DNA of 64,000 bases from the NCBI RefSeq assembly GCF_002505485.1, contig NZ_DAVG01000099.1:7561-71560 (forward strand), given 5' to 3'. The notes beneath the pieces were generated by a model that was not told the DNA's origin, ran no database searches, and saw nothing but the letters and a program-made list of their open reading frames with translations. Position numbers and translations under genes: made by a program. Shown piece after piece: positions 3,157-34,094 of the stretch. Source of the stretch: Methanosarcina sp. UBA5. GTDB taxonomy: Archaea > Halobacteriota > Methanosarcinia > Methanosarcinales > Methanosarcinaceae. Numbering within the stretch: the stretch's first letter is position 1; each line of letters begins with the position of its first letter.

Positions 3157-4125
3157 ATGCTTCAAAAATTTACATCGTTGTTTCCCCTCTGGGCAGTTAT
3201 CTTATCGGCTGTCGCATATGTTTATCCTGAATACTTTGCTCCCCATCAGGTACTTATCGTACCTTTTCTAAGCCTGATTATGCTTGGGATGGGGGTAACC
3301 CTCTCAGTGGACAATTTCCTTGCAGTGTTGAAAAAACCGTCAGTGGTTATTCTGGGAACTTTAATGAAGTACACCATTATGCCACTTTCAGCATGGGTAG
3401 TGTGTTATGTTCTAAAACTGCCTGCCGATCTTATGACAGGTGTTATCCTGCTGGGCTGCTGTCCAGGCGGCACGGCTTCCAATGTGATCTGCTATCTTGC
3501 AAAAGGGGATGTGGCTCTTTCAATAGTCCTTACTTCGGTCTCTACCTTACTGGCTTTTCTGGCAACGCCTTTCCTTACCTGGGTTTTTATAGGTCAAACC
3601 GTGGAGGTCGATGTCATGGGCATGCTTGTAAGTGTTGTAAACGTAGTAGTTGTGCCTGTAGTGCTGGGACTTGCAATCAACTATTTCTTTGGGAAACAGA
3701 TAAATGCTGTCAGAGAGATCTTTCCTGCAATTTCAGCCGCTGCTATAGTGATTATTATTGCTGTGATTATAGGGACAAATAGCGCTAACCTTGAACAGAG
3801 CGGCCCGCTGGTACTGCTTGCAGTGATCCTGCATAATGGGCTTGGGCTTGCAGGTGGCTACTGGGTTTCAAAGGCTATGAAACTCAGTGAAATCGAAGCA
3901 AGGACCATTGCAATTGATACAGGCATGCAGAACTCCGGCCTGAGTGTTGCCCTTGCGATAAAACACTTTACGGCTGTGGCCGCGCTTCCGGGTGCGATTT
4001 TTAGCATATGGCACAACCTGTCCGGAGCTTTCCTTGCAGGGCACTGGTCAAAACAAAGTGTATCCGATCCCGATAAAAGTAAGATGCCTTCCAAAAAAGG
4101 CATTCATAGTAAGAAATTGGGGTGA
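3157..4125 (+). CDS. bile acid:sodium symporter (BASS) family transporter
   Basis: Polytopic membrane ORF with typical BASS sequence (LGCCPGGTASNV, DTGMQNSGL). ATG 3157 is preferred over the GTG at 3115 used by the ORF track. Confidence 0.85.
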   Translation: MLQKFTSLFPLWAVILSAVAYVYPEYFAPHQVLIVPFLSLIMLGMGVTLSVDNFLAVLKKPSVVILGTLMKYTIMPLSAWVVCYVLKLPADLMTGVILLGCCPGGTASNVICYLAKGDVALSIVLTSVSTLLAFLATPFLTWVFIGQTVEVDVMGMLVSVVNVVVVPVVLGLAINYFFGKQINAVREIFPAISAAAIVIIIAVIIGTNSANLEQSGPLVLLAVILHNGLGLAGGYWVSKAMKLSEIEARTIAIDTGMQNSGLSVALAIKHFTAVAALPGAIFSIWHNLSGAFLAGHWSKQSVSDPDKSKMPSKKGIHSKKLG

Positions 4126-4759
4126 AATCTGGAGATTTCACAAAAAAGAGGTTGGGAAGCAGGATAAATCCGGTGATCTCGCATAAGTTTCCCGGATTTT
4201 TCCTGTATTCATCTAATTTTCTTATCTTTATCGATTTCCATAATTTCTTCTCTTTCTCTTCATAATTTTTTTCTCTGCCAGTCTATCATATTTAACAATT
4301 TTGCATTATATTTATCAATTTTGCATTTCTGAAATTTCGTTTTTCGGCCTTTCAGCTTTCCAGGTCACTAAATATGTAAAAGTTTCAAATTTTGGAAGTA
4401 AGTTTACTTTTTGTTTCCTACTCAGTTCCAAGCCAGTTGAATGTAATATTAAAAATCACTATCTTTGAAACTATGGCTAGTTTTAGTATAAGTAGTTTAA
4501 AATAATTACGGGAATAATTATGTTATATAACGGGAGCAATAGGGCTTGTGGATGTGTTGCGGTATAGCGAGCTTACAGTCAAAAAGTAGTGTTATCTAAG
4601 CAGGAATTTTGTAGTTAACTTGATCACAACTTCTATTCAGTGTGATTTTGTACTCCAAATATGTATTCTATACTGCAAAATTAAGGATTCATACAAAGTT
4701 CAAATAAGCGTTTTTGCAGCTGTACTGTAAGGATTAAAATCTATAGGAGTTGAGGGGAA

Positions 4760-6844
4760 ATGGAGAAGGAGGGAGTAATATGTCTGTTCGCTTTTGGCAT
4801 CGTACTGGTTAACGCTCTAACCCTTGTAGTTTTTGGTTTTTCCGAAACCTCGATGAGTAATATAAGCACTTCGGAAAAGGAAAAAGCTTTCGACCCCGGA
4901 AGCATGAATCTCTCAGTAAAACCTGGAGACGACTTCTATGAGTATGCTGAGGGAGCCTGGATAAAAAACCACCCTGTGCCCCCGGACAAAACCCGATATG
5001 GAGAGTTTGCCATAGTAGAGGATAGGACTTATGACCGTGTCAAAAGAATAGTGGAGAGTGCAGCCAGTAACACCTCTGCTCCTGAGGGAAGCCTTGAGCA
5101 GAAGATCGGCAAGTTCTACAGCGTGGGAATGGATAATGCCACCATAGAAAAGCAGCGTCTTGACCCAATCAAAGACGAGATGAAGTTGATAGACAACATT
5201 TCCAATGCCTCCGATCTCCAGGCAGTCTCAACACAAATGATGGAGTATGGCATAAATCCCTTCTTCTCAATTTATGCTGCGCCCGACAAAAAGAACAGTA
5301 AAATCATGATTGCTACCCTTACTCAGGGAGGGCTAGGCCTTCCGGATAGAGATTTCTATTTCAGGCAGGACAATGAATCTATCAAAATTAGAGAACAGTA
5401 TTTGACTCACATTACCAGGATGTTCGTCTTCCTCGGCGATAGCTCAGAGATCGCTGAGAATAATGCCAGGACTGTAATGAGGATAGAAACCAGGCTGGCC
5501 AATGCATCCTTTACTAACGTGGACAACAACGATGAAGTCAAAACGTATAACAAGATGAGCCTTAAGGAGCTTCAGGCCTTTGCCCCAGGCATTAACTGGT
5601 ATTGCCTCTTTGACACTCTGGGTCGTCCGGACGTAGACGAGGTCAACGTTAGAAATCCTTCCTTCTTCAAGGAACTAAGCATTGTCCTTCAGGACGAGAG
5701 CATAGCTGATTGGAAGACCTTCCTGCGCTGGAAGCTGATTTTAGGGACCTCTCCTTATCTCAGCTCTGATGTAGAAGAGGAACACTTTGATTTTTATACG
5801 AAAAAACTCAATGGTCAGCAGGAAATGAAGCCCCGCTGGAAAAGGGTTATTGAAGCGGAAAACGAGGCCATAGGTGAGGCCGTAGGCCGTGTCTATGTGG
5901 ATAGATATTTTGATCAATGTTCCAGAGCCAGGATGCAGGAGATGGCATTCAACCTGAAAAAGGCCTTCCGGATGAGAATTCAAAACCTTACATGGATGGA
6001 GCCTGAAACCAGGAAAGAAGCCCTCAAAAAGCTTGAAGCTCTGGATGTACAGGTAGGCTATCCCGATGAATGGCTGAACTATTCGGAACTTGAGATTAAG
6101 AACGATTCATATGTCATGAATGTCCTCAGGGCCTCTAAATTCAAGTTCCATCACGGTCCAAGCGGTCTGGACGGAATAGGCCAACCTGTGAATCGTAAGC
6201 TGTGGGAAATGAATCCACAGGAGATTAACGCCTATGCAGATTACAATAAAATAATCATAGTCTTTCCGGCAGGCATTCTTCAGCCTCCTTTCTTCAATAA
6301 GGATGCTGATGAAGCTGCCAACTATGGTGCCATAGGTGCTATTATAGGACACGAGATGACTCATCACTTCGATAGTCAGGGAAGGAAGTTCGATGCAAGT
6401 GGAAATTTGACGGATTGGTGGACGCCAGAGGACGCCGATAGCTTCAACAAGAGCACTGAGGTTCTGGTGGACGAGTACAGCAGGTTCGAGGTCCTGCCCG
6501 GCTTAAACGTCAACGGCAACCTGACCCTGCCGGAGAACGTAGCAGACCTGGGCGGATTGACCATAGCCTATCACGCCTATAAGCTCTCATTGAAGAAGGA
6601 GCCGGAGATGATCGATGGATTCACTGGAGATCAGAGATTCTTCTTAAGCTTCACCCAGGTATGGAGGGAATCGGACACAAATGAATCCCTGAGGACGCTG
6701 ACATTGACTGATACCCACTCGCCAGCCAGGTTCAGGGTCAGTGGTGTGGTCTTCAACGTGCCTGAGTTTTACAGGGCATTTCCTGACGTGAATCCCTCAG
6801 ATAAACTCTACATACCAGAAAGTGAAAGGCCGGTGATCTGGTAA
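4760..6844 (+). CDS. M13 family zinc metallopeptidase (neprilysin/PepO-like) with N-terminal membrane anchor
   Basis: 694 aa with HEMTHHFD (HExxH), NAYADYN...FPAGILQPPFF and the C-terminal ENVADLGG motif typical of M13. The purine-rich ggagttgagggg precedes the ATG. Confidence 0.9.
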   Translation: MEKEGVICLFAFGIVLVNALTLVVFGFSETSMSNISTSEKEKAFDPGSMNLSVKPGDDFYEYAEGAWIKNHPVPPDKTRYGEFAIVEDRTYDRVKRIVESAASNTSAPEGSLEQKIGKFYSVGMDNATIEKQRLDPIKDEMKLIDNISNASDLQAVSTQMMEYGINPFFSIYAAPDKKNSKIMIATLTQGGLGLPDRDFYFRQDNESIKIREQYLTHITRMFVFLGDSSEIAENNARTVMRIETRLANASFTNVDNNDEVKTYNKMSLKELQAFAPGINWYCLFDTLGRPDVDEVNVRNPSFFKELSIVLQDESIADWKTFLRWKLILGTSPYLSSDVEEEHFDFYTKKLNGQQEMKPRWKRVIEAENEAIGEAVGRVYVDRYFDQCSRARMQEMAFNLKKAFRMRIQNLTWMEPETRKEALKKLEALDVQVGYPDEWLNYSELEIKNDSYVMNVLRASKFKFHHGPSGLDGIGQPVNRKLWEMNPQEINAYADYNKIIIVFPAGILQPPFFNKDADEAANYGAIGAIIGHEMTHHFDSQGRKFDASGNLTDWWTPEDADSFNKSTEVLVDEYSRFEVLPGLNVNGNLTLPENVADLGGLTIAYHAYKLSLKKEPEMIDGFTGDQRFFLSFTQVWRESDTNESLRTLTLTDTHSPARFRVSGVVFNVPEFYRAFPDVNPSDKLYIPESERPVIW

Positions 6845-18816: not shown

Positions 18817-19607
18817 GTCATTGAAGTCGGGGAGCCTGAAGTTGAATGGTTTCCTATCTTTGCCAAGGTGCGCAGAATCCAGAGGATAACTCCGAAAGAA
18901 ATTAGGAAGAACATGGAGTTTAGGATAAGCGATTTCGGAATGTTTACGGATAAACACAAGCTGGAGCTTGAGGACTTGTAGGGTTCGGAGCATCAGAAGT
19001 TATGCTTACAGGCCTGAGTCGGGGTTTGCTTGATACAACCGTAACCGCCTGCGAAGGCGCAGGAACTGTAATTTCCAATAACTCAATCCTTGTTCAGGGC
19101 ATGGGCAGCAGGATGTCCGGACTTGTCGAAACCGAGCCGATTAACGGAATTATCAACGGGATTCAGGAACGCGGCGGGATCGTGCTTGACTCATCAACTG
19201 CAAAAATAGACCCGGTTGCAGGAGTTCGGAAGGCAGCAGAACTCGGTTACAAAAAAATTTCAGTAACCGTGGCTTTCGCTGAAACCGCAAAAGAATTAGG
19301 GAAACTTGAAGCCGAACTCGAGCTTGATTTAATATTAATTGGCGTACATGTTACAGGTTTAAACAAAGAGGAAGCCCAGACCCTGATTGAAAACGCTGAT
19401 ATTACAACCAGCTGCGCTTCAAAGTACATGAGAGATCTTGTAAAGTCTCTTGCCCAGGTAGGAGCTGCAGTTCTGCTTTTTGCCTTTACCCAGAAAGGAA
19501 AAGAACTTATGATTGAAAGGGCAAAGGATGTCAAAAGTCCACTTCTGATCAATACCATGCCTTTGCCTACATTGCCTGAAAACAAACAGCCAACAGAATT
19601 AAAGTAA
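18817..19607 (+). pseudogene. DUF2099 (methanogenesis-marker-8-like) paralogue, N-terminally truncated and frameshifted
   Basis: VIEVGEPEVEWFPIFAKVRRIQRITPKEIRKNMEF...KLELEDL* aligns to residues about 20-85 of the intact downstream paralogue. The frame then shifts near 18970-18978 to ...GFGASEVMLTGLSRGLLDTTVTACEGAGTV (ORF 19002-19607). No start codon; an in-frame TAA lies 5 codons upstream. Confidence 0.75.
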
Positions 19608-19924
19608 AACGAAAATTGAAGTAAAACGAATGAAAACGGTATAGACATCGTTATTACTTTTTTTACTTTACCTTTTTTAACCCTGTTCTTTAGCTTTTTA
19701 TTTAATGCTTCACTTTTCTTTCTTCTTTCGCTCTCTGTTCTTCTTTCTTATCTTCCTCCTTCTCTCCCAATACTCCATTTCATTAACAGATTTAAGATTT
19801 CAGCCTGAGCAAAAGTAAGATCAGGTCGTTTGTACGGTAGAATCACCATAGAAAGTTAGAATAATTAAGGCAAGAATCAGAATATCAAGTAATATTATTT
19901 TTGATTCCGGAAGGTGTGTTTCTA

Positions 19925-20776
19925 ATGCCTCACATAATGGAAATGATGGGTAAAGCCAGGGTAGTCGTAAAAGACGGAAAAGTGATAGAAGTCGGAGCTC
20001 CTGTAGTCGAATGGTGCCCACTTTTTGTCAAACTGCGGGGAGTCCAGAAGATGACTCCGGAAGAAATCCGGAAAAATATGGAGTCCCAGATCCGCGAGTT
20101 AGGAATGTTTACAGAGAATCGTAAGCTCGAATTTGAAACAACCGTTGTTGCCTTTGGTGCTTCAGAAATAATGATGAGCGGCCTCAATAGCGGCTTTATA
20201 GAAACAACTGTAACCGCCTGCGACGGTGCAGGGACTGTTATATCAGGCAATCCGGCTCTGGTTCAGGGAATTGGAGGTAGGATGTCCGGCCTAGTTGAAA
20301 CCGAACCAATAGATGCAGTTATTAAGGGAATTGAAGAGCGTGGAGGAACTGTGCTTGATCCCTCAACCGCAGCCATTGATCCGGCAAGTGGGGTAAGGAA
20401 AGCCGCCAAACTTGGCTACAGAAAGATCGCGGTAACCGTAGCCGACCTGAAAACCGCAAAAAACCTGAGAAAGCTTGAAATCGAACTCAGGCTTGACCTG
20501 ATAATAGTTGCCGTACATGTTACGGGAGTAAGCAAGGAAGAAGCTCAGGGGATTCTTGAAAACTCGGATATCGTAATCAGCTGTGCCTCCAGACACATAA
20601 GGGAACTTGCAAAGCCTCTAATGCAGGTAGCGGCCGCAATTCCGCTTTTTGCCCTTACCCAGAAAGGAAAAGAACTTGTGATTGAAAGGGCAAAGGACAT
20701 TCAGAGCCCAATTCTAATCAATACAACGAAGCTGCCTGTGCTCCCTGCACATAAACAGCCGAAAAATCTTGTTTAA
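19925..20776 (+). CDS. DUF2099 family protein (methanogenesis-marker-8-like)
   Basis: MPHIMEMMGKARVVVKDGKVIEVGAPVVEWCPLF...TTVTACDGAGTV...GRMSGLVETEP. ATG 19925 is preferred to the TTG at 19901. Confidence 0.75.
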   Translation: MPHIMEMMGKARVVVKDGKVIEVGAPVVEWCPLFVKLRGVQKMTPEEIRKNMESQIRELGMFTENRKLEFETTVVAFGASEIMMSGLNSGFIETTVTACDGAGTVISGNPALVQGIGGRMSGLVETEPIDAVIKGIEERGGTVLDPSTAAIDPASGVRKAAKLGYRKIAVTVADLKTAKNLRKLEIELRLDLIIVAVHVTGVSKEEAQGILENSDIVISCASRHIRELAKPLMQVAAAIPLFALTQKGKELVIERAKDIQSPILINTTKLPVLPAHKQPKNLV

Positions 20777-21373: not shown

Positions 21374-24300
21374 TTAAGGTAAATTTGGAAATGTCCTGTG
21401 ATAAGGCTCATCACCCATATACTTTTTCCATTCCTCTGGTGTAAGATTCCGGGTTAAACGACTGCTAGCTTCATTTATAAGATTATCTATATTAAATATC
21501 CACAACCTTGCTTTATAGTCAGCACTCGCCGTTGCCATATATTTTCCATCAGGACTGAAAACAACATCATTTACCGGACCATTATGGTTCAGAACAGTAA
21601 TTTGTTTACCTTTAGATGTATCCCATACATGTGATGTACTGTCATTGCTTGCCGTTGCTACATATTTTCCATCAGGACTGAATACAACACTATATACTGG
21701 ACCATCATGGTTCAAAACAAAATATTTTTCACCTGTTGATACATTCCATAGACTTGCTGTGTTGTCCCAACTCGCCGTTGCGATGAATTTTCCATCAGGA
21801 CTGAAAACAACTTTAACCACCCTATCATAATGTCTTAGAACAGTAATTTGTTCACCCGTAGAAACATTCCATAAACGTGCTGTCTTGTCACGACTCGCCG
21901 TTGCGATGTATTTTCCATCAGGACTGAAAACAACTTTAACCACCCTATCATAATGTTTGAAAGGAACCAAAATTTGTTCACCTGTAAATGCATTCCACAA
22001 ACGTGCTGTTTTGTCAGAACTCGCCGTTGCGATGTATTTTCCATCAGGACTAAAAACAACATCATTTACCGAACCATTATGGTTCAGAACCAAAATTTGT
22101 TCACCTGTAGATGCATTCCATAAACGTGCTGTTTTGTCAGAACTCACCGTTGCAATATATTTTCCATCAGGGCTGAACACAACATTGTTTACCGGACCCT
22201 CATGGTTCAGAACAAAGATTTCTTTACCTGTAGAAACATTCCATACGTGACCCGTAGATGCATTCCACACGCGTGATGTATTGTCCCAACTCGCCGTTGC
22301 CATATATTTTCCATCAGGACTGAAAACAACATTACTCACTAAACCATTATGTTTGAGAGGAGCCAATATTTGTTCACCCGTAGATGCATCCCATAAACGT
22401 GATGTACTGTCATTGCTCGCTGTAGCGACGTATTTTCCATCAGGACTAAAAACAATTTTAAATACCTTATTATCATGGTTCAGAATATCATATTCTGTAG
22501 ATGCATCCCATAAACGTGATGTACTGTCATTGCTCGCTGTAGCGACGTATTCTCCATCAGGACTGAAAACAACGTTATTCACCACATCACCATGGTTCAG
22601 AACAAAGATTTGTTTACCTGTAGCTACATTCCATACTTGTGATGTACTGTCAGAACTCGCTGTTGCGATGTATTTTCCATCAGGGCTGAACGCAACATTG
22701 TTTACCGGACCCTCATGGTTCAGAACAGAAATTTCTTTACCTGTAGATGCATTCCATAAACATGCTGTGTTGTCATTGCTCGCCGTTGCGATATATTTTC
22801 CATCAGGGCTGAACGCAACGTTGTTTACCGAACCTTCATGGTTCAGAACAAAGATTTGTTTACCTGTAGATGCATTCCATAAACGTGCTGCTTTGCCATT
22901 GCTCGCCGTTGCGACGTATTTTCCATCAGGACTGAACATAACATTATTCACCCCGTCACCATGGTTCAGAACCACAACGCTATGAGGTATGAGTAATAAT
23001 CCCTGACGTATTAACCGATCAGCACCCAACATTAACTGATCAGCATCCAATGTCCTACTAATTCTGAATGATTCAATAGCAAGAAGGACACTTTTATCTA
23101 GATTTCTAGGATCTCCTTGTAGAAGGCTGGATTTTAAATTTAACTCATCTGAAACATGAGCTTCTCTCATCTCTGTCTCTGCCAGATACCAGTGATAGGT
23201 TGCAAATCCAGCTATAATTAAAATTATGAAGAAAGCTGCACCCATTTTCTTATTGCGGCTTCTGCTCAATTCTTTCTCTGCCTGTTCTTCCTTTGCCCGT
23301 TTCTTCTCTGCCAGTTCATCATTAAAAACCTTGTTAGAAAATAGTATCGGTTTGATAAACCTGTCGTGTGTCAGTTCATACCAGCGCGCACCTGCCCGCC
23401 ACTCTGCTCTAATAAGGTGCATGCTTTCAAGCACATCAATAGCTGCATTAGGAATCCCGCCAGTGAAATCGTGAGCCCGATACACCATCCCTCGCGTCCC
23501 CATTGTTGTTATCATCACTTCACCGCACAATCTGCGCAGACCCTCCTCATCAATGTGTGCCTTCTCTGCCGCTGCCCTTATAGCCTCTTCGTAAAATCTG
23601 TAAAGTTCCTGTTCTACATTACCATAGGTTTTCAGGTGCTGAAACGTTATTTGCCTTACATCTGGTGGTAACTCCCTCCAGAGGTTCTGGCATACTACCT
23701 GAAGTTGCACAGCTTCTATGAACTCTCCTTTTACCTCAGCGGTCTTGCCGGGCATTGTTTCAACTCGAATTGTTAGCAACTCATCGACAAGTTTTTCTGC
23801 TACGCCCTCTTCAAAAGAACGACCAGTATATTTTAACGGTCCTTTGATTGCTAGCAGTGCAGCCTCGCGGCGCAGACTCTCTACGTGAAAACGCGTCCGC
23901 AATCTGTCGGGCAGAAGATCTGCATAGGGATCTAGCTGAGCTATGAAATCCTCCCGCATGACAAAAACAACCCTTAAGAGAGGATCTGCTTCCAGAACAG
24001 TGCTTACTTGCTCAAAGAATCCGTCCCTATCTTTCCAGCGGTCCTGATACAAAGAGAATATTTCCTCAAACTGATCGAAGATGACGACACGAGGTAAAGG
24101 CATACCCTCTTCATCCTGCATACGACTCTGCCCATTCAAAAAATCAACAAGTTTCATTCTAGCCAGGCACTTAATATTACACTCACCTTCAGCCCAGCTT
24201 GTTAGGGTATTAAAGACGTATATATTCGAGATCTCATCAGTTTTTATGTTATTCAAAGGTGTACCTTTAACTCGTGCTACTGGCAGAACTTCGAACTGGT

Positions 24301-24499
24301 TTTCTTTCAAGAGAGGAATAAGCCCTGCATTGAAAAGTGAAGTCTTACCTGCACCCGACTGGGCATAGACGAGAACCAGATTATGTGCAATGACCAGGGA
24401 CAGGAGATCTCGAGCTTCACGGTCTCTTCCAAAAAAAATGAATTTATCTTCCAGTTCAAAAGGTCGAGGACCCACATAAGCCTGGAATTCAGGTCCCAC
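21374..24499 (-). CDS. nSTAND-type P-loop NTPase, single TM helix, 12 WD40 repeats (predicted sensor/switch of a conflict system)
   Basis: N-terminus AYVGPRPFELEDKFIFFGRDRE, Walker A AQSGAGKTS (24338-24364), Walker B VVIFDQFEE (24062-24088) and WYELTHDRFI. TM segment MGAAFFIILIIAGFATYHWY (23186-23245). Twelve FSPDGKY(I/V)ATAS.D.T..LW repeats. GTG start preceded by gggagg. Confidence 0.9.
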   Translation of the reverse strand: MGPEFQAYVGPRPFELEDKFIFFGRDREARDLLSLVIAHNLVLVYAQSGAGKTSLFNAGLIPLLKENQFEVLPVARVKGTPLNNIKTDEISNIYVFNTLTSWAEGECNIKCLARMKLVDFLNGQSRMQDEEGMPLPRVVIFDQFEEIFSLYQDRWKDRDGFFEQVSTVLEADPLLRVVFVMREDFIAQLDPYADLLPDRLRTRFHVESLRREAALLAIKGPLKYTGRSFEEGVAEKLVDELLTIRVETMPGKTAEVKGEFIEAVQLQVVCQNLWRELPPDVRQITFQHLKTYGNVEQELYRFYEEAIRAAAEKAHIDEEGLRRLCGEVMITTMGTRGMVYRAHDFTGGIPNAAIDVLESMHLIRAEWRAGARWYELTHDRFIKPILFSNKVFNDELAEKKRAKEEQAEKELSRSRNKKMGAAFFIILIIAGFATYHWYLAETEMREAHVSDELNLKSSLLQGDPRNLDKSVLLAIESFRISRTLDADQLMLGADRLIRQGLLLIPHSVVVLNHGDGVNNVMFSPDGKYVATASNGKAARLWNASTGKQIFVLNHEGSVNNVAFSPDGKYIATASNDNTACLWNASTGKEISVLNHEGPVNNVAFSPDGKYIATASSDSTSQVWNVATGKQIFVLNHGDVVNNVVFSPDGEYVATASNDSTSRLWDASTEYDILNHDNKVFKIVFSPDGKYVATASNDSTSRLWDASTGEQILAPLKHNGLVSNVVFSPDGKYMATASWDNTSRVWNASTGHVWNVSTGKEIFVLNHEGPVNNVVFSPDGKYIATVSSDKTARLWNASTGEQILVLNHNGSVNDVVFSPDGKYIATASSDKTARLWNAFTGEQILVPFKHYDRVVKVVFSPDGKYIATASRDKTARLWNVSTGEQITVLRHYDRVVKVVFSPDGKFIATASWDNTASLWNVSTGEKYFVLNHDGPVYSVVFSPDGKYVATASNDSTSHVWDTSKGKQITVLNHNGPVNDVVFSPDGKYMATASADYKARLWIFNIDNLINEASSRLTRNLTPEEWKKYMGDEPYHRTFPNLP
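21494..22981 (-). repeat. 126-bp (42-codon) tandem repeat array encoding the WD40 blades
   Basis: Runs of identical DNA occur between units, for example the 42-nt ccatcaggactgaaaacaactttaaccaccctatcataatgt at both 21793-21834 and 21919-21960. Confidence 0.9.
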
Positions 24500-24560
24500 T
24501 ATTGAAAGCCTCCCATCGCGTTCTCAATTCTGCGGAAAATTGTTGGCATTACTAACACCC
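24497..24560 (-). other. scar of a deleted SIR2 module: SIR2-gene leader plus first codons joined to SIR2-domain last codons
   Basis: 24497-24541 is 39/45 identical to 25629-25673. 24539-24560 is 21/22 identical to 26507-26528. The blocks abut at a shared att. Confidence 0.8.
24499..24549 (-). other. 16-codon upstream ORF (MPTIFRRIENAMGGFQ*) whose TAG overlaps the NTPase GTG start
   Basis: The ATG is the complement of 24547-24549. The stop TAG (24499-24501) shares one nt with the GTG (24497-24499). Confidence 0.35.
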
Positions 24561-25005
24561 TTCACAAAGTTTAAAATTCAAACTATTTATCCAATTGGAT
24601 AATAAGCAACGTTAATTTCAAATTCAGATCGTAAATTTTCTCGAAATTTAGAATTTGGTATCGAATACAAGGATTTCTGTCATAAAGTACTGTTTTTTAG
24701 CTGTACTTTTATTGAAAATGAATGTAAATACGGAAATAGCGAAAGAAAGGGACTTTAGGGGAGAATCGCTTCTTTGCTGCACGATGCGGCCTTCAGGATC
24801 AACTTTCAGGAAAAAGTTCTAAATATTTCCTTTCCTTATCCATGAACAAGTTCATTCTCCCCTTCTTGAGATGGAGAAATAAGCTATCTTCTTACCCCCG
24901 GATGCCCCTGCCGAAACATCACCCTTAAACCCCCGGAGCTTATTTGAACCTAGAATTTAAACGCCACTCCCATCGTCTCAATCCTTATTTGTTGAACTGT
25001 GACAA

Positions 25006-26517
25006 TTATGACTGATCCTTCTTTATTAAAACCGGTGTTAGATGCTCTGGAATACCATGTAGTTGAATTTGTACACACCCAAATCTATATGCTTCTTCAA
25101 TGCTACGCCCTCCTCCTAATGCCTGGTAAAAACCAATAGCGAAGGCGATAGCAGCTTTATCGCCGATTGCTTGGTTCATGCCAATGACATATTTGATGTG
25201 TTTGGCGATGGCTTTTGCCTGAATCTCTGCGTAACAAGCGTTCAAAACTACACAATTCACCTGACCACTAAATTGTTCAAACAATGCAGCCAACGCATCA
25301 GGCTCGATTGGGTGATTTTTCCCTTCCAGATCCTCAAAGCATAACGCACCAGTAGGTGTGCCGTGACCAGAAAAATGGACAATATACGGCTGTATATCAA
25401 GCAAAGCTTGGGATATATCTGATGGGCGAACTGACAATTGTGGCAATAATGTAAAGCGGTCCCGAAATTTAGCCAATTTCAGTTTTTCTTGAATCTCTCG
25501 AAATTCTTCACCAAGCCGCAGGCGAGATTCATTAGTGGGATCGGCTGCTAAGAAGAGTATCGAAACCTTATCGGTTTTTTCTTTAATTAGGAAAGCTTGC
25601 CTATTTTCGGCATTTATTTTTGTGATATCACTCTTGAAAGCCTCCCATCGTGTTTTCAATTCCTCGGCAAATTCGCTGCAATCGTGCCAGTATACCTGGA
25701 TATGAAGATCCTTATCAAAATAGCGATCCAGATATTTCTGAGCTTTTTCTTCAAGGGTATCGGAAACATTCCCTGGCACGATCTGCACGGATATGTGCTT
25801 TCTATTCTCACTTCTTCCGATGTAGTCATCAAGAATCCTGCAAAGAACACGGAAATCCCAATCAGTTACCTTGTAGCCTATAAGAAGAAGAGATGTGCCT
25901 CCAAATGCTTCCTGAATACGCGGCGGAAGCAGGTTTTGATCCTTTGAAACGGCAACAAGGAAGTCCAGATAGTTGTCCTCTGTTAGAACCAGTGACTCTG
26001 GTCTTTTATACCATCCATGGAGGTGATATACTAAAGGTTTGTCCGGAGTGGGATCGAAGTCTGATGACGTTGGTTTGCGTTGCCTGAGTTCTTCATTCCA
26101 CAGACATATTTCCTGGGTTGGTGCTTTGCCACGGCTTTTAAGAGCTTGCACCATAAGGTCATCGTAAGTTGTGGTAATATAAACTGGCAGTGGGAGATAG
26201 GCTAATACTCCGTGAATTTCATTACGAGCTTCAAAATATGTTGGTGTGACTTCTTCTGACAGTTCAGTGATTCTATTACAAATCTCATCCCTTGGAAACA
26301 TCTCGTCTTGGGTCACAGCCACAAACTGAGCCACCCGTGTCAAGTCGTCCGAGTCTTCCATTGGGTAGTCGTACTCTTCTGCCCATTCATTTGCAATCTG
26401 GGAAATAACAGAAATCTTTTCAGAACAGGCCCCAGATCCAAGAAAAGGAGTACACTTTCCATACTTGATTCTCTTAAGAAGAATGTCCCAATCCTTCTCT
26501 TCCAGCATTGTTGGCAC
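25006..26517 (-). CDS. SIR2-like (SIR2_2) domain fused to a CHAT/caspase-like peptidase domain
   Basis: SIR2 motifs are PFLGSGAC, ITTTYDD, VYHLHG, LTEDNYLDF and LLLIGYKVTDWD. The CHAT part is ILFLAADP...VHFSGHG (His codon 25363-25365)...VVLNACY (Cys codon 25234-25236). Start is ambiguous: GTG 26526, GTG 26517 or ATG 26508. Confidence 0.9.
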   Translation of the reverse strand: MPTMLEEKDWDILLKRIKYGKCTPFLGSGACSEKISVISQIANEWAEEYDYPMEDSDDLTRVAQFVAVTQDEMFPRDEICNRITELSEEVTPTYFEARNEIHGVLAYLPLPVYITTTYDDLMVQALKSRGKAPTQEICLWNEELRQRKPTSSDFDPTPDKPLVYHLHGWYKRPESLVLTEDNYLDFLVAVSKDQNLLPPRIQEAFGGTSLLLIGYKVTDWDFRVLCRILDDYIGRSENRKHISVQIVPGNVSDTLEEKAQKYLDRYFDKDLHIQVYWHDCSEFAEELKTRWEAFKSDITKINAENRQAFLIKEKTDKVSILFLAADPTNESRLRLGEEFREIQEKLKLAKFRDRFTLLPQLSVRPSDISQALLDIQPYIVHFSGHGTPTGALCFEDLEGKNHPIEPDALAALFEQFSGQVNCVVLNACYAEIQAKAIAKHIKYVIGMNQAIGDKAAIAFAIGFYQALGGGRSIEEAYRFGCVQIQLHGIPEHLTPVLIKKDQS

Positions 26518-26665
26518 TACTAACACCCCCCAAGAAGTTAAATTCTCTTCTCAATTTTTCTCGTGTTTATTTTCCCCACTCACCTTTCTTTCCACTCACC
26601 TGCTGTCTTGAAAGCAAATTAAAAATCAGGACACAGAATGGAAATGTTTTCAACTCCACAATTTC

Positions 26666-26992
26666 TCAACTTTTCCAGGTCAAAGTCACGTTAAAATTAG
26701 CGCCCGTACCCGCTGCTATAAACATACCGGCTTTTAAATCCATTGAAATGCCAAAAGAAACTTTAACTTCTTCCGGTTGCTTACTGAGATCTTTTAACCG
26801 ATTCAATACAGTATTAGCAACAGGCTTTACAATACCAAGCGATTCTTCAAATGTCTGATTTGTGATATTTACTATCTCACGAGATGTAGATGAACGTGAA
26901 ACACGAGTTATTTCCCCTTCAACTTCAGCCTCTTCTGCTTCTATTAATACAGTACTACCATCTTCCAGAGTTAATTTTACAAGGCGTTTCAT
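26666..26992 (-). CDS. Trypco2-like (CU044_2847-family-like) small protein
   Basis: 108 aa. MKRLVKLTLEDGSTVLIEAEE...EEVKVSFGISMDLKAGMFIAAGTGANFNVTLTWKS matches the family pattern as I recall it (vpLedGg.vlVEv...evEfGvkls.eaGa.iaka..eanfkVtl.W). Confidence 0.75.
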   Translation of the reverse strand: MKRLVKLTLEDGSTVLIEAEEAEVEGEITRVSRSSTSREIVNITNQTFEESLGIVKPVANTVLNRLKDLSKQPEEVKVSFGISMDLKAGMFIAAGTGANFNVTLTWKS

Positions 26993-27281
26993 AAAAAATC
27001 ACAGTTCTAAATATTTATTATTAAAGTGGTATTTTTATTGAATAATAAAAGGATATTTACTAATATAGGGAAAATAAGTATTGAACTAATGAGAAAAAGA
27101 AGTCAGAAATACAGATAAAAGAATAGTTATATACAATCTCATGCGTCATCGGTTAAGGAATCTATTAATGTTAAAAAAATGACTACTGCAATCATCTATG
27201 CATATCGATTTCAATTTCTAGGTTTACAGAAGCGGCAACAAAAATAACGCATTTCGTATAGATTGTATCTTAACCAAATAC

Positions 27282-27551
27282 AAATCAAATTGCATGCGGC
27301 CACCCCACCCTAAAGGATGGGGTATGCTTCGGGCCGCCCGCCCGGTTTCTTGGGAAGAGTTTAGTATCTTTAACAAAGTTTCCCCAATATAGAGTTGCAT
27401 TCCCACTCTTGTAACCATGATACCAAGAAACCTCACTTTACAAAGAAGCAACGGTACAGAGGTTTAAACGAAACCAAAAAGAGGCGAGGGTTCACTTCAT
27501 CCCCGACATAAAGGACAGGATATTCGTGACCCTCTGCGCTCCCGATGTAAT
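27282..27551 (-). repeat. dispersed repeat, copy B (237-bp core plus 33-bp 3' extension with hairpin)
   Basis: The core 27315-27551 is 96 percent identical to the reverse complement of copy A. The extension forms gcggcc...accccatcc-ttta-gggtggggt-ggccgc and is shared with copy C. Confidence 0.9.
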
Positions 27552-27708: not shown

Positions 27709-28134
27709 CTATTTTTTATCCTTGAGCTTTCCCAGTACTCCGAAGAAATCAAATTTGTTTTCAGAAGTTTTGCCTTCATTTTTGTTCTTTTCCATTTCAA
27801 ATCTTCTATCTATAATATATTCTCCAATCGGATTGACAAAACCCAGCAGAATTCCTAGCCCTGTAAAAATATAGATCACAGTAAAAATTTTCCCCAAATC
27901 CGTTTTAGGGGCAAAGTCCCCATAACCCACAGTTGCCAGGGTGATAACCGAAAAATAGAAAGAGTCAAGCCATCTCCAACCTTCGACCCTATGGTAAAAG
28001 ACAGTGCCCCCTGCGAGAGTTATCAAAGTTAAATAAAGGAGGGACCTGAACTTAGGATCTTTAAGCAGCGTTTTTAGTGTCTTTAGAAACATAAAGAATG
28101 TATAAAGAAAAGGAATCATTATCTTTCCCTCCAA
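27709..28134 (-). CDS. two-TM potassium channel (pore-only, TVGYGD filter)
   Basis: FYFSVITLATVGYGDFAP selectivity filter between two TM helices. The internal ATG at 28119 is an alternative start. Confidence 0.85.
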   Translation of the reverse strand: MEGKIMIPFLYTFFMFLKTLKTLLKDPKFRSLLYLTLITLAGGTVFYHRVEGWRWLDSFYFSVITLATVGYGDFAPKTDLGKIFTVIYIFTGLGILLGFVNPIGEYIIDRRFEMEKNKNEGKTSENKFDFFGVLGKLKDKK

Positions 28135-28223: not shown

Positions 28224-29639
28224 TTAGAAACGTGGGCTTTCGATCCGGTCCCATTTTCTGAAGCTCTGTCCGAGCAGGTAGAGGGCAAGAGGCACCAGCA
28301 GGAGGTTTACAAGCACATAGTACGGACCAAACATTGAGAGGATAACGTTCACCAGCAGGAGCGGCATGACTGAGAGCGTGTATACAGCGAAAGTCCTGCC
28401 GTTATAGAGATTTATGGAAGGAGAAAGCCCTGTTAGGTAAATAAGTATTGAAACCATGTAAAGCGAAATTGAGAGGAAAAGCAGCAGCGTTGGCAGCAGA
28501 AATGCAGGGTCTTTTTTAAGGGTGAGCAGGATCAGAAGTATAAACGGAACAAGATTCAGGAAAAGGTAACTGTTGAGTTTGTTCCTTATCATGTCCGAAA
28601 CTTTCAGGGGAAAGAAAGCATACGAGGTAAAGATATCGTATTCTGTAAGCCAGTTATACATTGAAGAGGAAAGTACTCCCAGAACAAGGGAAATCAGAAT
28701 TAGAATATTTAAAGCCGGGAGAACCTTTCCCAAGGCTGAAAGAAGCATCCAGATAAGAGCCGCAGGCAGCAGGAACGAGAAGATTAACTTTCCGAATCCT
28801 CCCTCACTCCTTTTCAGGTCAAGGAAATCCTTTGCGACGAAAGCTGCATACCTGTATGAACCAAACTTCCCGCAAAGCCTGGAAAATGAGTTTGGGAAGC
28901 TCTTTTTCGCCTGGGGGAAGTCCACCTTCAGGAAAAACAGGGATAAAGCCGAAGGAATGATTATAAGCCCAGAGGAAAGCAGAAACTGGCTTTTTGAGGA
29001 AAGCAGGAAAAAAGAGAGGCTTGGCAGGCTATAAAATATTCCTGAATCCAGATTTCCAGAAATAGAAAGCAGGAAAACGCAGCCAGCCAGCAAACCCAAA
29101 GTCAGCAGCTTTCCGGAATGGGCATAAATAGTAGATAAGAAAAATACCAGGGAAAGCCCGATCATAAAGGAAAGAGAAAGGGTCAGGAGAAGGAAGAGAA
29201 GGGTAAAAGGAAAATGGAAGTTTCCTGCCGGGATAAGGGCTGCAGCAAGCGCAAAACCTGCAACGAAAGGCAGCACATAGAGGGCAAAGTAATATACGAC
29301 ATCTTTTACAAGGAAGTTTGCAAAGATTAATCTCTCGGAAACAGGAAGCGTCCTTGAAGAATATGCTATCATGCTTGCCTGCCCGAAACGCCGGTTCATA
29401 AACTCCCTGCCCATAAGCCCGAAAGCTCCTACCATGCTTCCCAGAAGCAAAAAAAAGTAATGCATCCCGAGCGCAATCTGGGCATAGGTAAAGATTTCCC
29501 TAAAAATTGGCAGAACCAGGCTTACGAAGAAGGTGAAGAGAAAGATAAAGACCGGAAAGAGAGAAAAACCATTGTTTCCGAAAAGATTTGAATGCATTCG
29601 CCATTCTTCTTTAAGCATGCTTTTAAAGATATCAAACAT
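28224..29639 (-). CDS. polytopic membrane protein, probable permease partner of the adjacent ABC ATPase
   Basis: 471 aa with more than 10 hydrophobic segments, co-oriented downstream of the ABC ATPase gene. Confidence 0.6.
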   Translation of the reverse strand: MFDIFKSMLKEEWRMHSNLFGNNGFSLFPVFIFLFTFFVSLVLPIFREIFTYAQIALGMHYFFLLLGSMVGAFGLMGREFMNRRFGQASMIAYSSRTLPVSERLIFANFLVKDVVYYFALYVLPFVAGFALAAALIPAGNFHFPFTLLFLLLTLSLSFMIGLSLVFFLSTIYAHSGKLLTLGLLAGCVFLLSISGNLDSGIFYSLPSLSFFLLSSKSQFLLSSGLIIIPSALSLFFLKVDFPQAKKSFPNSFSRLCGKFGSYRYAAFVAKDFLDLKRSEGGFGKLIFSFLLPAALIWMLLSALGKVLPALNILILISLVLGVLSSSMYNWLTEYDIFTSYAFFPLKVSDMIRNKLNSYLFLNLVPFILLILLTLKKDPAFLLPTLLLFLSISLYMVSILIYLTGLSPSINLYNGRTFAVYTLSVMPLLLVNVILSMFGPYYVLVNLLLVPLALYLLGQSFRKWDRIESPRF

Positions 29640-29804: not shown

Positions 29805-30554
29805 TTATGCATATTGTGCAGGTATGCTCAGACCGGTGCCAGAATTCCCTGGTCTGCTTACTAAATCCAGAAAGAAATCTTCAAAGTTTCTTCTCTGAAG
29901 GGTAGGATCGTCCAGGCGGCCTGTATAGACCAGTTTTCCTTTGTAAATGATCCCAATACTGGTACAGATCTGTTTTGCAATCTCGAGGATATGTGTCGAA
30001 ATAAAAACTGTTCCTCCGTTTTTCACATAGCCTGCGAGAAAATCCTTTACTTTTCTCTGAATTACAGGATCCAGGTTGATTAGAGGCTCATCGATAATTG
30101 CGAGTTCCGGTTCATGCAGGAAAGCCTGGGCAAACATCAATTTTTGTCTTGTACCTCTTGAGAGGTCTTTGCATAGTGAATTTTTCTGGTCTCCGAAATC
30201 CAGGAATTCGAACCATTTTTCACAGGTTTTCTCATAGCTTTCCATTTTCCGGATCTTTGCAACGAAGTAGAGGTATTCTTCTGCTGTCAAAAAACTTGGT
30301 GGGGTTTCCTGCTCAGGAACAATGCCTGCAAGTTCGCGTACTCGAATCGGGTCTTCAAGTACATCCACGCCGTGTACCCTAACTGAGCCGGAGGTTGGTT
30401 TTATCTGGCCTGTAAGCATCCTGATCATAGTTGTTTTTCCTGACCCGTTAGGACCCAGAAGCCCAAAAAGCTCACCTTTTCCAATCGAAAAGGAAATGTC
30501 ATTTACTGCCTTTGTACTTCCGTAGAATTTAAAAATATTTCTTACTTCAATCAT
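29805..30554 (-). CDS. ABC transporter ATP-binding protein
   Basis: MIEVRNIFKFYG..., Walker A GPNGSGKTT, signature LSRGTRQK and Walker B LAIIDEP. ATG 30554 is preferred to the longer ORF-track start at 30602. Confidence 0.88.
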   Translation of the reverse strand: MIEVRNIFKFYGSTKAVNDISFSIGKGELFGLLGPNGSGKTTMIRMLTGQIKPTSGSVRVHGVDVLEDPIRVRELAGIVPEQETPPSFLTAEEYLYFVAKIRKMESYEKTCEKWFEFLDFGDQKNSLCKDLSRGTRQKLMFAQAFLHEPELAIIDEPLINLDPVIQRKVKDFLAGYVKNGGTVFISTHILEIAKQICTSIGIIYKGKLVYTGRLDDPTLQRRNFEDFFLDLVSRPGNSGTGLSIPAQYA

Positions 30555-30620
30555 CTTTAAGTCTCCTGAAAGCCCGTTATTTACAGGCAAATGAAGGTAC
30601 AATGCCAGTCATAGAGTAAA

Positions 30621-32609: not shown

Positions 32610-34094
32610 ATGGCCTATTTTAAAGAGCGGGAAGCCGAGATCAATGGTTCTCTCCTTGCCGTGTTGTCCGGGGAAAACCTCCTCTTCCTCGGTCCGCCTG
32701 GAACGGCAAAAACCCAGCTTGCGAAAAGTATCTGCCAGTTAATCGAAGGCGGAAATTTCTTCAATTATCTCCTGACAAGTTTTTCCACCCCTGAAGAGCT
32801 CTTTGGTCCGCTTTCCTTAAAAGCCCTGGAAGAAGATGAATTCCGCCGGAAAATTAACGGCTGCCTCCCGACTGCTCATGTTGCTTTGTTGGACGAGATT
32901 TTTAAAGCAAGCAGTGCGATCCTTAACAGCCTCCTGACCATTCTCAATGAGCACAAATACCATAACGGGAGAGAGCTTGTAGATGTACCACTGCTCTCGG
33001 TTTTCGGGGCATCTAATGAGTTTCCTGATGAAAACGAGAGTCTTGAAGCCCTTTATGACCGCTTTTTATTCAGGTACAGTCTCGCATATATTCAGGACGA
33101 AGGGAATTTCCGGGACCTCCTTTTCAGGAGCCATGACGAGTTCGAACCTGCTGCAAGTCTCATTATTTCTGCAATATACGAACTTCGGGCACGTGCAAAA
33201 GATCTGCCTGTTGACCCTGACGTTGAGGTCATTATAACTGAGCTTCGAAAAAACCTCCAGCTTCAGGAGATTGAAATCTCGGACCGGCGCTGGAAGAAAA
33301 TTATTGAGGTGCTTAGGGTTGCGGCTTGCAGTAGCGAGTGCCCGACTGTGGACAGGACAATGGTGCTCCTGCTTCAGCACATGCTCTGGAACCTTCCCGA
33401 AGAGCGGGAAACCATAAGGAAAACCGTCTTTGAGTTCGCAATCTCAGGTGGTATTAATACGGAAAAACTGCGTCAGGAAGCCGAAGACCTTCAGACTGTA
33501 GTAAGCATTGCCCTGAAAAACGAACTTCCTGTAAAGATTGTCTGCGACAGCTGCGGAGAAGAATTCCGGCTGAGGCAGGAAATTGAAACTCACCATATTT
33601 CCCACCCGAATCACAGCTATACGCTTAAAATGGAAGGATCTTCAAGGATCTATCCTTATGACAACCTTGTGAGAGAAATTGATTCGCTCCAGGAATCGGC
33701 TGGAGAAGCGAGCACACTGCCCCAGGTCCAGAAAGAAATTTTTGAAAAAGAATTGGAAGCCCTGGCCGATCGTCTGGAACGCGTAAAATACAGGCTTGAA
33801 GCCGAAAGGGAACTTCTCAAAAACCTGATGGATACGAATATCTGGCTCTCGACGCTTGACAGAAACGAAGCTCTCCTCCTGCACGATACCCGAAGTATCG
33901 AATTATCCGAGCTCAATGACCTTATCTCAAAAAGCCGGTCAATGCTCGGACTGCAGAACAGACAGAGGCAACCTGAACCGCAGCCTGCAAAAGGAGCAGG
34001 AAAAAGAGAAATGGAAAAAATTTCCATATCCGATTCGGGCAGCAATGTTAATAGTTTTATGAAAGGTCTTAGCTCCCGATTTAAGCTCAGATAA
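32610..34094 (+). CDS. MoxR/RavA-like AAA+ ATPase with embedded classical C2H2 zinc finger and coiled-coil C-terminus
   Basis: Walker A GPPGTAKT, Walker B ALLDEIF and sensor region SLLTILNE. C-x2-C-x3-F-x5-I-x2-H-x3-H lies at 33543-33605. The in-frame upstream sequence (...LKEKLLEIKSAF) lacks a canonical start, so the N-terminus is uncertain. Confidence 0.8.
   Translation: MAYFKEREAEINGSLLAVLSGENLLFLGPPGTAKTQLAKSICQLIEGGNFFNYLLTSFSTPEELFGPLSLKALEEDEFRRKINGCLPTAHVALLDEIFKASSAILNSLLTILNEHKYHNGRELVDVPLLSVFGASNEFPDENESLEALYDRFLFRYSLAYIQDEGNFRDLLFRSHDEFEPAASLIISAIYELRARAKDLPVDPDVEVIITELRKNLQLQEIEISDRRWKKIIEVLRVAACSSECPTVDRTMVLLLQHMLWNLPEERETIRKTVFEFAISGGINTEKLRQEAEDLQTVVSIALKNELPVKIVCDSCGEEFRLRQEIETHHISHPNHSYTLKMEGSSRIYPYDNLVREIDSLQESAGEASTLPQVQKEIFEKELEALADRLERVKYRLEAERELLKNLMDTNIWLSTLDRNEALLLHDTRSIELSELNDLISKSRSMLGLQNRQRQPEPQPAKGAGKREMEKISISDSGSNVNSFMKGLSSRFKLR

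Follow-up and report, generated by a model that had tools for sequence, protein, structure and literature searches.

The subject of this analysis is a stretch of 64,000 nucleotides (nt) from Methanosarcina sp. UBA5 (contig NZ_DAVG01000099.1, positions 7,561 to 71,560), called the window below, and in particular the region directly before its gene for an nSTAND1 NTPase with WD40 repeats. Judged by sequence, this region very probably keeps the scar of a lost stand-alone SIR2 gene, left by one internal deletion of ~830 nt with short homology at the junction. In the proposed course of events, a SIR2 gene of ~300 amino acids (aa), preceded by its own leader and followed by the nSTAND1-WD40 NTPase gene, would once have been the first of a two-gene operon. 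A single out-of-frame deletion of ~835 nt inside the SIR2 gene, with 1-4 nt of homology at its junction, would then have fused SIR2 codon 4 to codon ~284. The leader, the ATG with 8 further nt, and the last 16 codons with their stop would be what survived.

The stretch before the NTPase gene

The region before the NTPase gene was compared with the SIR2-CHAT gene of the same window by Smith-Waterman local alignment (query 24440-24660, target 24900-26800). A tail block, 24497-24541, matched 25629-25673 at 39/45 positions without gaps (score 60), and a head block, 24539-24579, matched 26507-26545 over 41 columns with one 2-nt gap (score 46); the core 22-mer of the head block, 24539-24560 against 26507-26528, was identical at 21/22 positions. 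These identities reproduce those counted in an earlier note on this DNA, which had left their chance expectation to be estimated. In 60 dinucleotide-preserving shuffles of the whole window, searched on both strands, the best scores were 24.9 +/- 2.3 and 25.6 +/- 2.4 with a maximum of 33, indicating that both real scores lie well above chance. The two blocks meet between 24539 and 24538, and the segment of the paralogue without counterpart is 25674-26506 (833 nt), the same gap as noted before. The gene identities proposed in the note, SIR2_2 plus CHAT at 25006-26526 and nSTAND1 plus WD40 at 21374-24499, agreed with the Pfam matches, and 25629-25673 does encode the end of the SIR2 domain. The note had also considered that the block might occur upstream of many unrelated genes; a blastn-short search of 24440-24760 against the 64-kb window showed no copies beyond 25629-25673 and 26507-26545. 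An Rfam scan of 23500-27500 matched 0 families, so the conserved leader is not accounted for by a known RNA element.

On the minus strand the region reads ...gaagggtgttagta ATG CCA ACA AT and, past the junction, T TTC CGC AGA ATT GAG AAC GCG ATG GGA GGC TTT CAA TAG TG GGA CCT GAA TTC CAG GCT TAT GTG GGT CCT. The frame that matches SIR2 is ..QFSAELRTRWEAFNSGT (...RTRWEAFNSGT), and it ends at a TGA (24491-24489) 8 nt into the open reading frame (ORF) of the NTPase. The final 11 nt of the tail relic thus lie within the NTPase ORF, and the same overlap of stop and start was found in the intact operons of the relatives L001, L003 and L081 (relatives are cited by L numbers). That the SIR2 frame has a stop of its own, within the start of the next gene, points to two overlapping genes, not to a domain linker. 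The head relic aligned with the starts of operon SIR2 genes in L085 (GTGCCAACAATGCTGG) and in L002 and L003 (ATGCCAAATATACTGG). No SIR2_2 domain (PF13289) is left at the scar, where the gene survives as 11 nt at its 5' end and 50 nt at its 3' end; tblastn with the operon SIR2 found nothing in 24500-25005 except the tail. With its SIR2 ORF gone, the window has no SIR2-nSTAND1 two-gene operon. Read across the out-of-frame junction, the sequence gives a 16-codon ORF, whose TAG (24501-24499) has one base in common with the NTPase GTG (24499-24497). The leader is today the 5' region of the NTPase gene. It contains a perfect palindrome of 16 nt, TTATCCAATTGGATAA, at 24587-24602, ~40 nt before the relic ATG; the site reads TTATCCAATTGGAGAA or similar in relatives, and the perfect symmetry is limited to the window lineage including L101 and L102.

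The extent of the deletion was measured against the orthologous locus of Methanosarcina hadiensis (L003). Window 24652-24544 aligned to L003 5015-5120 (leader and first codons) and window 24543-24444 to L003 5956-6056 (last codons and NTPase start), leaving L003 5121-5955, 835 nt, without a window counterpart. The alignment was global with cheap gap extension and was noisy outside the two conserved blocks, worst against L001 with its other leader type; only the block-level result was kept. Neither 833 nt (against the paralogue) nor 835 nt (against L003) is a multiple of three, and the deletion is out of frame. The 39 nt before the NTPase start (24538-24500) matched L084 at 37/39, L004 at 37/38 and the paralogue at 25629-25673 at 32/37 positions. 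The leader plus head, 113 nt, aligned over its full length to the regions upstream of operon SIR2 genes (102/113 in L085, 96/104 in L002, 97/108 in L097), whereas only the last ~40 nt of leader plus head aligned to the SIR2-CHAT leader, which is of a different type. Moreover, the operon SIR2 of L085 also has the head CCAACAAT, which had seemed peculiar to the paralogue. As far as these alignments tell, the source of the relic is the orthologous operon SIR2 and not the SIR2-CHAT paralogue.

The homology at the junction ranges from 1 to 4 nt, and its value depends on the relative taken as ancestor. It is 3-4 nt (AAT/AATT) given a GAATTT ancestral tail, as in most orthologues, and 1 nt given the GATTTTT tail (GATTTTTCCG) of L084. 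An ancestor similar to the SIR2-CHAT paralogue or to L085 (head CCAACAATGCTGG) gives the 3-nt att microhomology reported in the note, which shrinks to 1 nt with the tail of L084, the closest relative. Recombination between two tandem SIR2 copies was considered and rejected as the origin of the junction; it would remove CHAT plus the spacer and leave a chimeric SIR2, and neither was observed.

SIR2 and nSTAND1 genes in relatives

One genome per species was scanned with the N-terminal part of the NTPase, which gave 80 loci, and these NTPase-centred loci were searched by tblastn with the window SIR2-CHAT. In many of them a SIR2 matching residues ~1-297 ended within a few bases of the NTPase start, both in Methanosarcinaceae (L001, L003, L017) and in Anaerolineae, Acidobacteriota, Planctomycetota, Pontibacter, Caldilineaceae, Cupriavidus and others. 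More than 30 archaeal and bacterial loci carry a stand-alone SIR2 gene of ~300 aa directly upstream of the nSTAND1 NTPase gene, with an overlap of usually 4-14 nt between the SIR2 stop and the NTPase start; in the ORF calls of Methanosarcinaceae operons the two genes overlap or abut by 1 to 14 nt (Table 1). Such an ORF meeting the nSTAND1 start was found in L001, L003, L081, L082, L088, L090, L095, L097, L098 and many bacteria, and PF13289 was matched by the orthologues of L003 (5088-6011, E=3e-26) and L001 (5109-6011, E=5e-25). All relatives examined have SIR2 as an ORF of its own, in a different frame from the NTPase, that ends at or just past the NTPase start; SIR2 and NTPase formed one ORF in 0 of ~40 loci with an upstream SIR2. 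M. hadiensis shows the gene order of the window with all genes intact: SIR2-CHAT, SIR2 (307 aa), NTPase. Searches with PADLOC and NCBIfam assigned the SIR2/nSTAND1 pair to no named system and returned just weak matches to ThsA-, Dsr- and chat-type domains. Tandem systems were seen in L097 (804-9367 of JGI20225J20221_1002721), with SIR2 and NTPase followed by SIR2-CHAT, an intact SIR2 and NTPase, which plausibly pictures the duplicated state from which a window-type locus arose.

The NTPase of the window is a clear nSTAND1 member (PF20703, 131 bits against a cut-off of 27.1, residues 8-316), with Pfam E values of 1.1e-37 for nSTAND1 and 5e-112 for WD40. Its Walker A motif, GAGKTS, lies at 24355-24338, and the class motif also includes the N-terminal YVGxxPF..FFGR. 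The N-terminus is conserved in homologues P0001-P0013, and the closest homologues (65-88% identity, Methanosarcina-type) all start M-[VGA]-PEFQAYVGP, as encoded from GTG 24499. This conserved start indicates that the NTPase gene is complete. The protein has 1041 aa in the window and 1123 aa in the 99.2%-identical copy of L101 (8494-11865). The 82-aa difference equals two 41-aa WD40 repeats, so the number of sensor repeats varies between very close strains; at 22226-22267 (minus strand), where the alignment with L101 breaks, the WD40 array has an irregular repeat junction, WNASTG/HVWNVSTG.

The allele set in which loss of the operon SIR2 was followed combined the genome loci, contigs carrying the closest homologous proteins, and loci from a metagenome scan based on the conserved tail/start pattern. 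Among 10 distinct Methanosarcinaceae alleles with SIR2-CHAT upstream, the operon SIR2 is degraded in 8/10, by deletions with their own breakpoints in seven and by internal disruption in one (Table 1). Because the breakpoints differ, at least one separate event has to be assumed for each allele; the deletions of L084 and L092 are not derivable from one another, and the window cannot come from L085 or L086 because it keeps bases that they lack or lacks bases that they keep. Where no SIR2-CHAT was found in the available flank, seven SIR2 alleles are intact (L001, L081, L082, L088, L090-type, L095, L098), SIR2 is truncated in L004, and both SIR2 and NTPase are frameshifted in L007 and L017. Presence of SIR2-CHAT against loss of SIR2 gave a Fisher p of 0.07 for all alleles and 0.015 for intact-NTPase loci only. 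SIR2 was lost in 5/5 loci with an intact Trypco1 gene and in 3/5 without, a trend only and not significant by our own estimate. In L004 (5070-5282), the 5' part of SIR2 is replaced by unrelated sequence, giving a 70-aa ORF that ends in the last ~48 SIR2 codons and starts with a winged-helix fragment (PF22977, 26.6 bits, just below the 27-bit gathering cut-off). Trypco1 is truncated in L085 (2573-2680; aa 73-108 remain) and fragmented in L012 (90-429), indicating that accessory genes besides SIR2 also decay.

Immediately ahead of the NTPase start, the block ...GAATTGAGAAC.CGATGGGAGG.TTTCAAT. is conserved in the window and in 14/16 aligned relatives, all deletion alleles included. The exceptions are L007, with the NTPase itself broken, and L082, with a rearranged junction and AGAGG instead of GGGAGG. 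The deletions of L006, L012, L084, L085, L086 and L092 all retain at least 45 nt of the SIR2 3' end with GGGAGG, and the 3' breakpoints of the window, L085 and L086, which are three independent ones, fall within ~12 nt, just upstream of the GGGAGG block. We take GGGAGG, within the SIR2 codons W-E-A-F, to be the expected ribosome-binding site of the NTPase, in line with archaeal Shine-Dalgarno usage. Deletions reaching further in would silence the NTPase and would hence not be recovered. The relic would supply the NTPase with the old operon promoter and leader as well as this ribosome-binding site. The 16-codon ORF, ending TAGTG, would allow termination-reinitiation coupling like that of the old overlap, a feature that is probably incidental because other alleles are without it. 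In L086 the leader is lost and 154 nt separate SIR2-CHAT and NTPase, making co-transcription likely there.

Table 1. Window features, called ORFs of intact operons in relatives, and state of the operon SIR2 gene in Methanosarcinaceae alleles with SIR2-CHAT upstream
Feature or locus	Coordinates	Strand	Description
nSTAND1 NTPase-WD40 gene	21374..24499	-	Intact, 1041 aa, GTG start, at least 12 WD40 repeats
Probable tail relic	24489..24538	-	Last 16 SIR2 codons (..FSAELRTRWEAFNSGT) and TGA stop
Upstream ORF	24499..24549	-	16 codons (MPTIFRRIENAMGGFQ, then stop), product of the out-of-frame junction; read from sequence
GGGAGG Shine-Dalgarno-like motif	24509..24514	-	9 nt before NTPase GTG
Probable head relic	24539..24549	-	ATG 24549-24547 plus 8 nt (CCAACAAT) of former stand-alone SIR2 gene
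Leader	24550..24651	-	Presumed promoter region of former SIR2-NTPase operon
SIR2-CHAT paralogue	25006..26526	-	506 aa; likely start GTG 26517 or ATG 26508
Paralogous tail copy	25629..25673	-	Encodes EFAEELKTRWEAFKS, C-terminal helix of SIR2 domain
Paralogous head copy	26507..26545	-	Ribosome-binding site and first codons of SIR2-CHAT; local alignment
Trypco1 (Pepco) gene	26666..26992	-	Directly upstream of SIR2-CHAT; Pfam Trypco1 E=2.6e-22
L001	SIR2 5109-6011; NTPase start 5998		Called ORFs
L003 (M. hadiensis)	SIR2 5088-6011; NTPase start 6001		Called ORFs
L081	SIR2 4118-5011; NTPase start 5001		Called ORFs
L088	SIR2 4120-5004; NTPase start 5001		Called ORFs
L082	SIR2 1973-2881; NTPase start 2881		Called ORFs
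Allele L003			Operon SIR2 intact
Allele L097, second copy			Operon SIR2 intact
Allele window (= L101, L102)			ATG plus 8 nt joined to last 16 SIR2 codons
Allele L084 (= L089, L093, L100)			In-frame, SIR2 aa ~8-95 plus ~186-297
Allele L092 (= L096)			In-frame, SIR2 aa 8-64 plus 222-307
Allele L006			In-frame, SIR2 aa 1-64 plus 265-306
Allele L085 (= L091)			SIR2 aa 1-~85 plus last 15 codons
Allele L012			SIR2 aa 1-~50 plus ~20 codons, without start codon
Allele L086 (= L087)			Last 18 SIR2 codons only; leader lost too
Allele L002			Operon SIR2 internally disrupted

SIR2-CHAT, Trypco1 and catalytic residues

The SIR2-CHAT protein of the window matched SIR2_2 at aa 115-261 (E=2.9e-24) and CHAT at aa 341-481 (E=1.4e-6). 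The catalytic residues of ThsA are N112 and H152, corresponding to the Asn of TTNYD and the His of xHG. In the window SIR2-CHAT the Asn is replaced by Thr (TTTYDD, 26175-26158) and the His is kept, so that on residue comparison it lacks the pair that marks an active SIR2 NADase; the PDB match of its SIR2 part, 7uxt, has TTNYD. The CHAT His (FSGHG, 25374-25360) and Cys (LNACY, 25245-25231; the Cys is aa 431) are present and align with the solved CHAT protein 8tl0.

These residues were tabulated for every SIR2-like ORF in the loci. The stand-alone operon SIR2 proteins of ~300 aa keep both TTNYDD and HLHG. Among SIR2-CHAT proteins, those of the window clade (window, L084, L085, L086, L092) read T/S-T-T-YDD, with the Asn lost, that of M. 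hadiensis has HLYG, with the His lost, and those of L002, L006, L012 and L097 have both catalytic residues. Bacterial upstream genes with an N-terminal CHAT (L008, L010, L015, L016, L020, L021, L025, L026, L039) or an N-terminal TIR (L013, TIR-SIR2) carry a SIR2 without the His and often without the Asn. In L011 (4203-5993) and L014 (3792-5975) the NTPase is preceded by a tandem pair of SIR2 genes, of which the distal one retains Asn and His and the one adjoining the NTPase has lost the Asn (TTAYDD) or both (TTTYYD, HLYG).

The origin of SIR2-CHAT can be read at its domain border. In L002, L006 and L012 the protein reads ...WEAFN(R/N/H)(G/S)T followed by I.KD, and the L002 SIR2-CHAT DNA retains ...CAATCGTGGTACC, that is, the NTPase start GTGGTACC, up to the former TGA. 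From these sequences SIR2-CHAT appears as a copy of the operon SIR2 that reads through the former stop into CHAT. The homology therefore stops where CHAT or the NTPase begins, which explains the end point that the note had placed at exactly this divergence. Recombination at a conserved linker, the note's second proposal, fails for the scar and holds for SIR2-CHAT to the extent that a SIR2 copy reads through its stop into CHAT. Past the SIR2-CHAT stop (25006-25008), at ~24950-24987 on the minus strand, a degenerate third copy of the tail motif was observed (ATTGAGA-CGATGGGAG..TTTAAAT). L085 at the same spot also retains AATTCCAGG, corresponding to NTPase codons 4-6. The third copy exceeds the shuffles in the window and L085 only, and in L006 the spot is occupied by a perfect hairpin; a relic of the CHAT joining and a terminator hairpin are both conceivable.

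Directly upstream of SIR2-CHAT lies a Trypco1 gene, syntenic in L084, L086, L092 and L002. Trypco1/2, renamed Pepco, has been reported for other members to be a small effector or toxin activated by cleavage by a neighbouring protease (bioRxiv 10.1101/2025.11.14.688446). Kaur et al. 2020 (PMC7159879) were the first to note that it co-occurs with peptidases. In the window Trypco1 adjoins a CHAT domain with His and Cys motifs, the gene content of a Pepco/Trypco1-protease module, and by analogy the CHAT protease is presumed to have Trypco1 as its substrate and effector. The window retains no SIR2 with a complete catalytic pair, its remaining one being the Asn-to-Thr domain of SIR2-CHAT, which suggests a proteolytic output: the system now probably acts through the CHAT protease on the adjacent Trypco1/Pepco, in place of a NADase. 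The WD40 sensor NTPase would thus now work without a SIR2 NADase partner that is catalytically competent. The stand-alone SIR2 gene, on this view, had become dispensable or costly.

The pattern of presumably dead SIR2 domains supports, without proving, the SIR2 fold as an NTPase-coupling element with dispensable chemistry. We consider it possible, though short of probable, that the fold serves primarily as a docking or oligomerisation handle to nSTAND1, that its catalysis decays after fusion to another effector, and that the Methanosarcina lineages are caught in a switch of effector, from NAD depletion to a CHAT protease working with Pepco, in which the superfluous stand-alone SIR2 was deleted at least five separate times while the 45 nt with the ribosome-binding site of the NTPase were spared. 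This proposal draws on C-terminal CHAT in Methanosarcina, N-terminal CHAT in bacteria and N-terminal TIR in Pontibacter.

Other genes of the neighbourhood were also surveyed. An ABC ATPase (29805-30602), a 471-aa protein with no Pfam match (28224-29639) and a small Ion_trans_2 channel protein (27709-28134), all on the minus strand, are syntenic with the locus in L084, L086, L092 and L101. On the plus strand, 32610-34094 encodes a bpMoxR AAA ATPase, the MoxR of MoxR-vWA-beta-propeller ternary conflict systems, and 19002-19607 and 19901-20776 are adjacent DUF2099 genes, the first of which matches profile positions 81-257 of 257 only and is thus an N-terminally truncated duplicate.

Readings of the probable scar and related systems

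An ancestral single polypeptide, SIR2-linker-NTPase-WD40, that lost its N-terminal SIR2 domain would have a parallel in Avs5, which has an N-terminal SIR2 on a STAND NTPase (PMC11897194), and in P0051, an nSTAND1 NTPase with a C-terminally fused SIR2. P0051, however, is the only fusion found and has the opposite domain order. The SIR2 and NTPase of the ~40 upstream-SIR2 loci share no ORF and differ in frame, the SIR2 frame of the scar ends at its own TGA (24491-24489), the NTPase start is conserved in all close homologues, and the deletion is out of frame. Such an ancestor, which the note had proposed with a leader before SIR2, is very unlikely, and the intact SIR2-NTPase-WD40 fusion that was to be sought in related genomes was absent from these ~40 loci. 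What survives of the note's deletion scar is the loss of SIR2 coding sequence in one internal deletion of ~830 nt, as the orthologous loci indicate; the deleted part was a separate overlapping upstream gene and not a fused domain. We give just as little credit to a history without deletion, in which patches of SIR2-CHAT were copied before the NTPase by gene conversion or patchy duplication. The head CCAACAAT does equal the head of the in-genome SIR2-CHAT, with L002 and L003 differing (CCAAATAT, CCAGATAT), but the orthologue L085 has the same CCAACAATGCTGG head in its operon SIR2. Moreover, the tail and the 100-nt leader are closer to orthologous operon SIR2 loci, the leader is of a type unlike that of SIR2-CHAT, and syntenic loci carry an intact or part-deleted SIR2 gene at exactly the same place.

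A generic regulatory element, that is, a promoter or ribosome-binding-site box before unrelated genes, would account for the GGGAGG in the tail and for the weak third copy, ATTGAGA.CGATGGGAG, just past the SIR2-CHAT stop. Against it, 64 kb hold no more copies, the block occurs elsewhere only as the SIR2 3' end before orthologous NTPases, and it encodes the conserved C-terminal helix of SIR2, F..EL..RW, bacteria included, which makes this explanation highly improbable. An assembly or sequencing artefact at the junction is hardly conceivable. The junction is identical, base for base, in L101, an independent contig from a JGI metagenome (99.2% identity over 10.7 kb, 0.8% differences in the flanks), and in L102, a Logan assembly contig that is 100% identical; these two were reached via the Trypco1 protein, an exact look-up of the window NTPase protein (V or M first) having given no record. 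The window junction is absent from all relatives more distant than L101 and L102, and it is older than the split of these strains.

Deletion of a stand-alone SIR2 gene is thus the reading we prefer. Several points count against it, or against the functions attached to it. The promoter, the ribosome-binding-site function and the translation of the upstream ORF are all predicted from sequence, as is the loss of NADase activity by the Asn-to-Thr change in this family. The tail may have been kept because the deletions are young and not through selection, and bigger deletions may have overwritten smaller, earlier ones. The association of SIR2-CHAT with SIR2 loss is statistically weak and the alleles are phylogenetically non-independent, making it suggestive only; in L002, L006 and L012 the loss of the operon SIR2 may be simple redundancy instead of a switch of effector type. 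As a single event, the deletion is ordinary decay of a defence gene, with nothing unusual in kind. It resembles ordinary prokaryotic gene relics in being one internal deletion with short homology (1-4 nt) that leaves both gene termini, and differs in that a breakpoint-distinct loss recurs in sister lineages with the last ~45 nt always kept. This recurrence, the sparing of the ribosome-binding-site block and the presumably dead SIR2 domains beside other effectors are what makes the case somewhat notable.

The ancestral operon, combining a SIR2_2-type NADase with a STAND NTPase carrying a C-terminal sensor, is like Avs5 (AVAST type 5; PMC11897194, PMC12931631). Avs5, in contrast, is a single polypeptide with N-terminal SIR2 from another STAND clade, whereas here the genes are separate ORFs in all relatives, the NTPase is nSTAND1 and the sensor is a WD40 propeller; none of the PADLOC Avs models matched. 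The NTPase, with its repeat sensor, belongs clearly to the nSTAND1 conflict systems (Kaur, Burroughs, Iyer, Aravind 2021, eLife, PMC8195603), and relatives of it carry variable effectors, namely TIR, peptidase S24, FGE-sulfatase and TPR. The passages of that article on nSTAND1 and SIR2 describe no SIR2 gene overlapping an NTPase start, and the term Methanosarcina is absent from its text. Pepco (Trypco1/2)-protease modules (bioRxiv 10.1101/2025.11.14.688446; PMC7159879) likewise have a small Trypco1 gene before a protease gene, beside a STAND sensor; they differ in that here the predicted CHAT protease follows a probably inactive SIR2 domain and is encoded apart from the STAND NTPase. Among SIR2 NADase effectors (Thoeris ThsA, DSR1/DSR2), ThsA-type SIR2 gave the SIR2 parts their best matches in PADLOC and PDB. 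Compared with ThsA and DSR, the stand-alone copies keep the TTNYD and HG motifs and are without SLOG or the DSR sensor region; scores stayed far under the family cut-offs (Dsr2, 18.6 bits against 1400).

For annotation, these results suggest that the NTPase be taken as intact from GTG 24499 and the stretch upstream as the remnant of a SIR2 gene instead of a piece of a fusion protein. Together with its relatives the locus makes up a natural series, from intact SIR2 through in-frame mini-SIR2 and terminal relics to complete loss, which shows replacement of the effector gene in STAND immune operons with the sensor retained. The series also points to the bases that must survive, a ribosome-binding site embedded in the upstream gene. 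Finally, the presumably dead SIR2 found wherever CHAT or TIR is fused offers a testable idea on how separately encoded effectors may dock to nSTAND1 NTPases.

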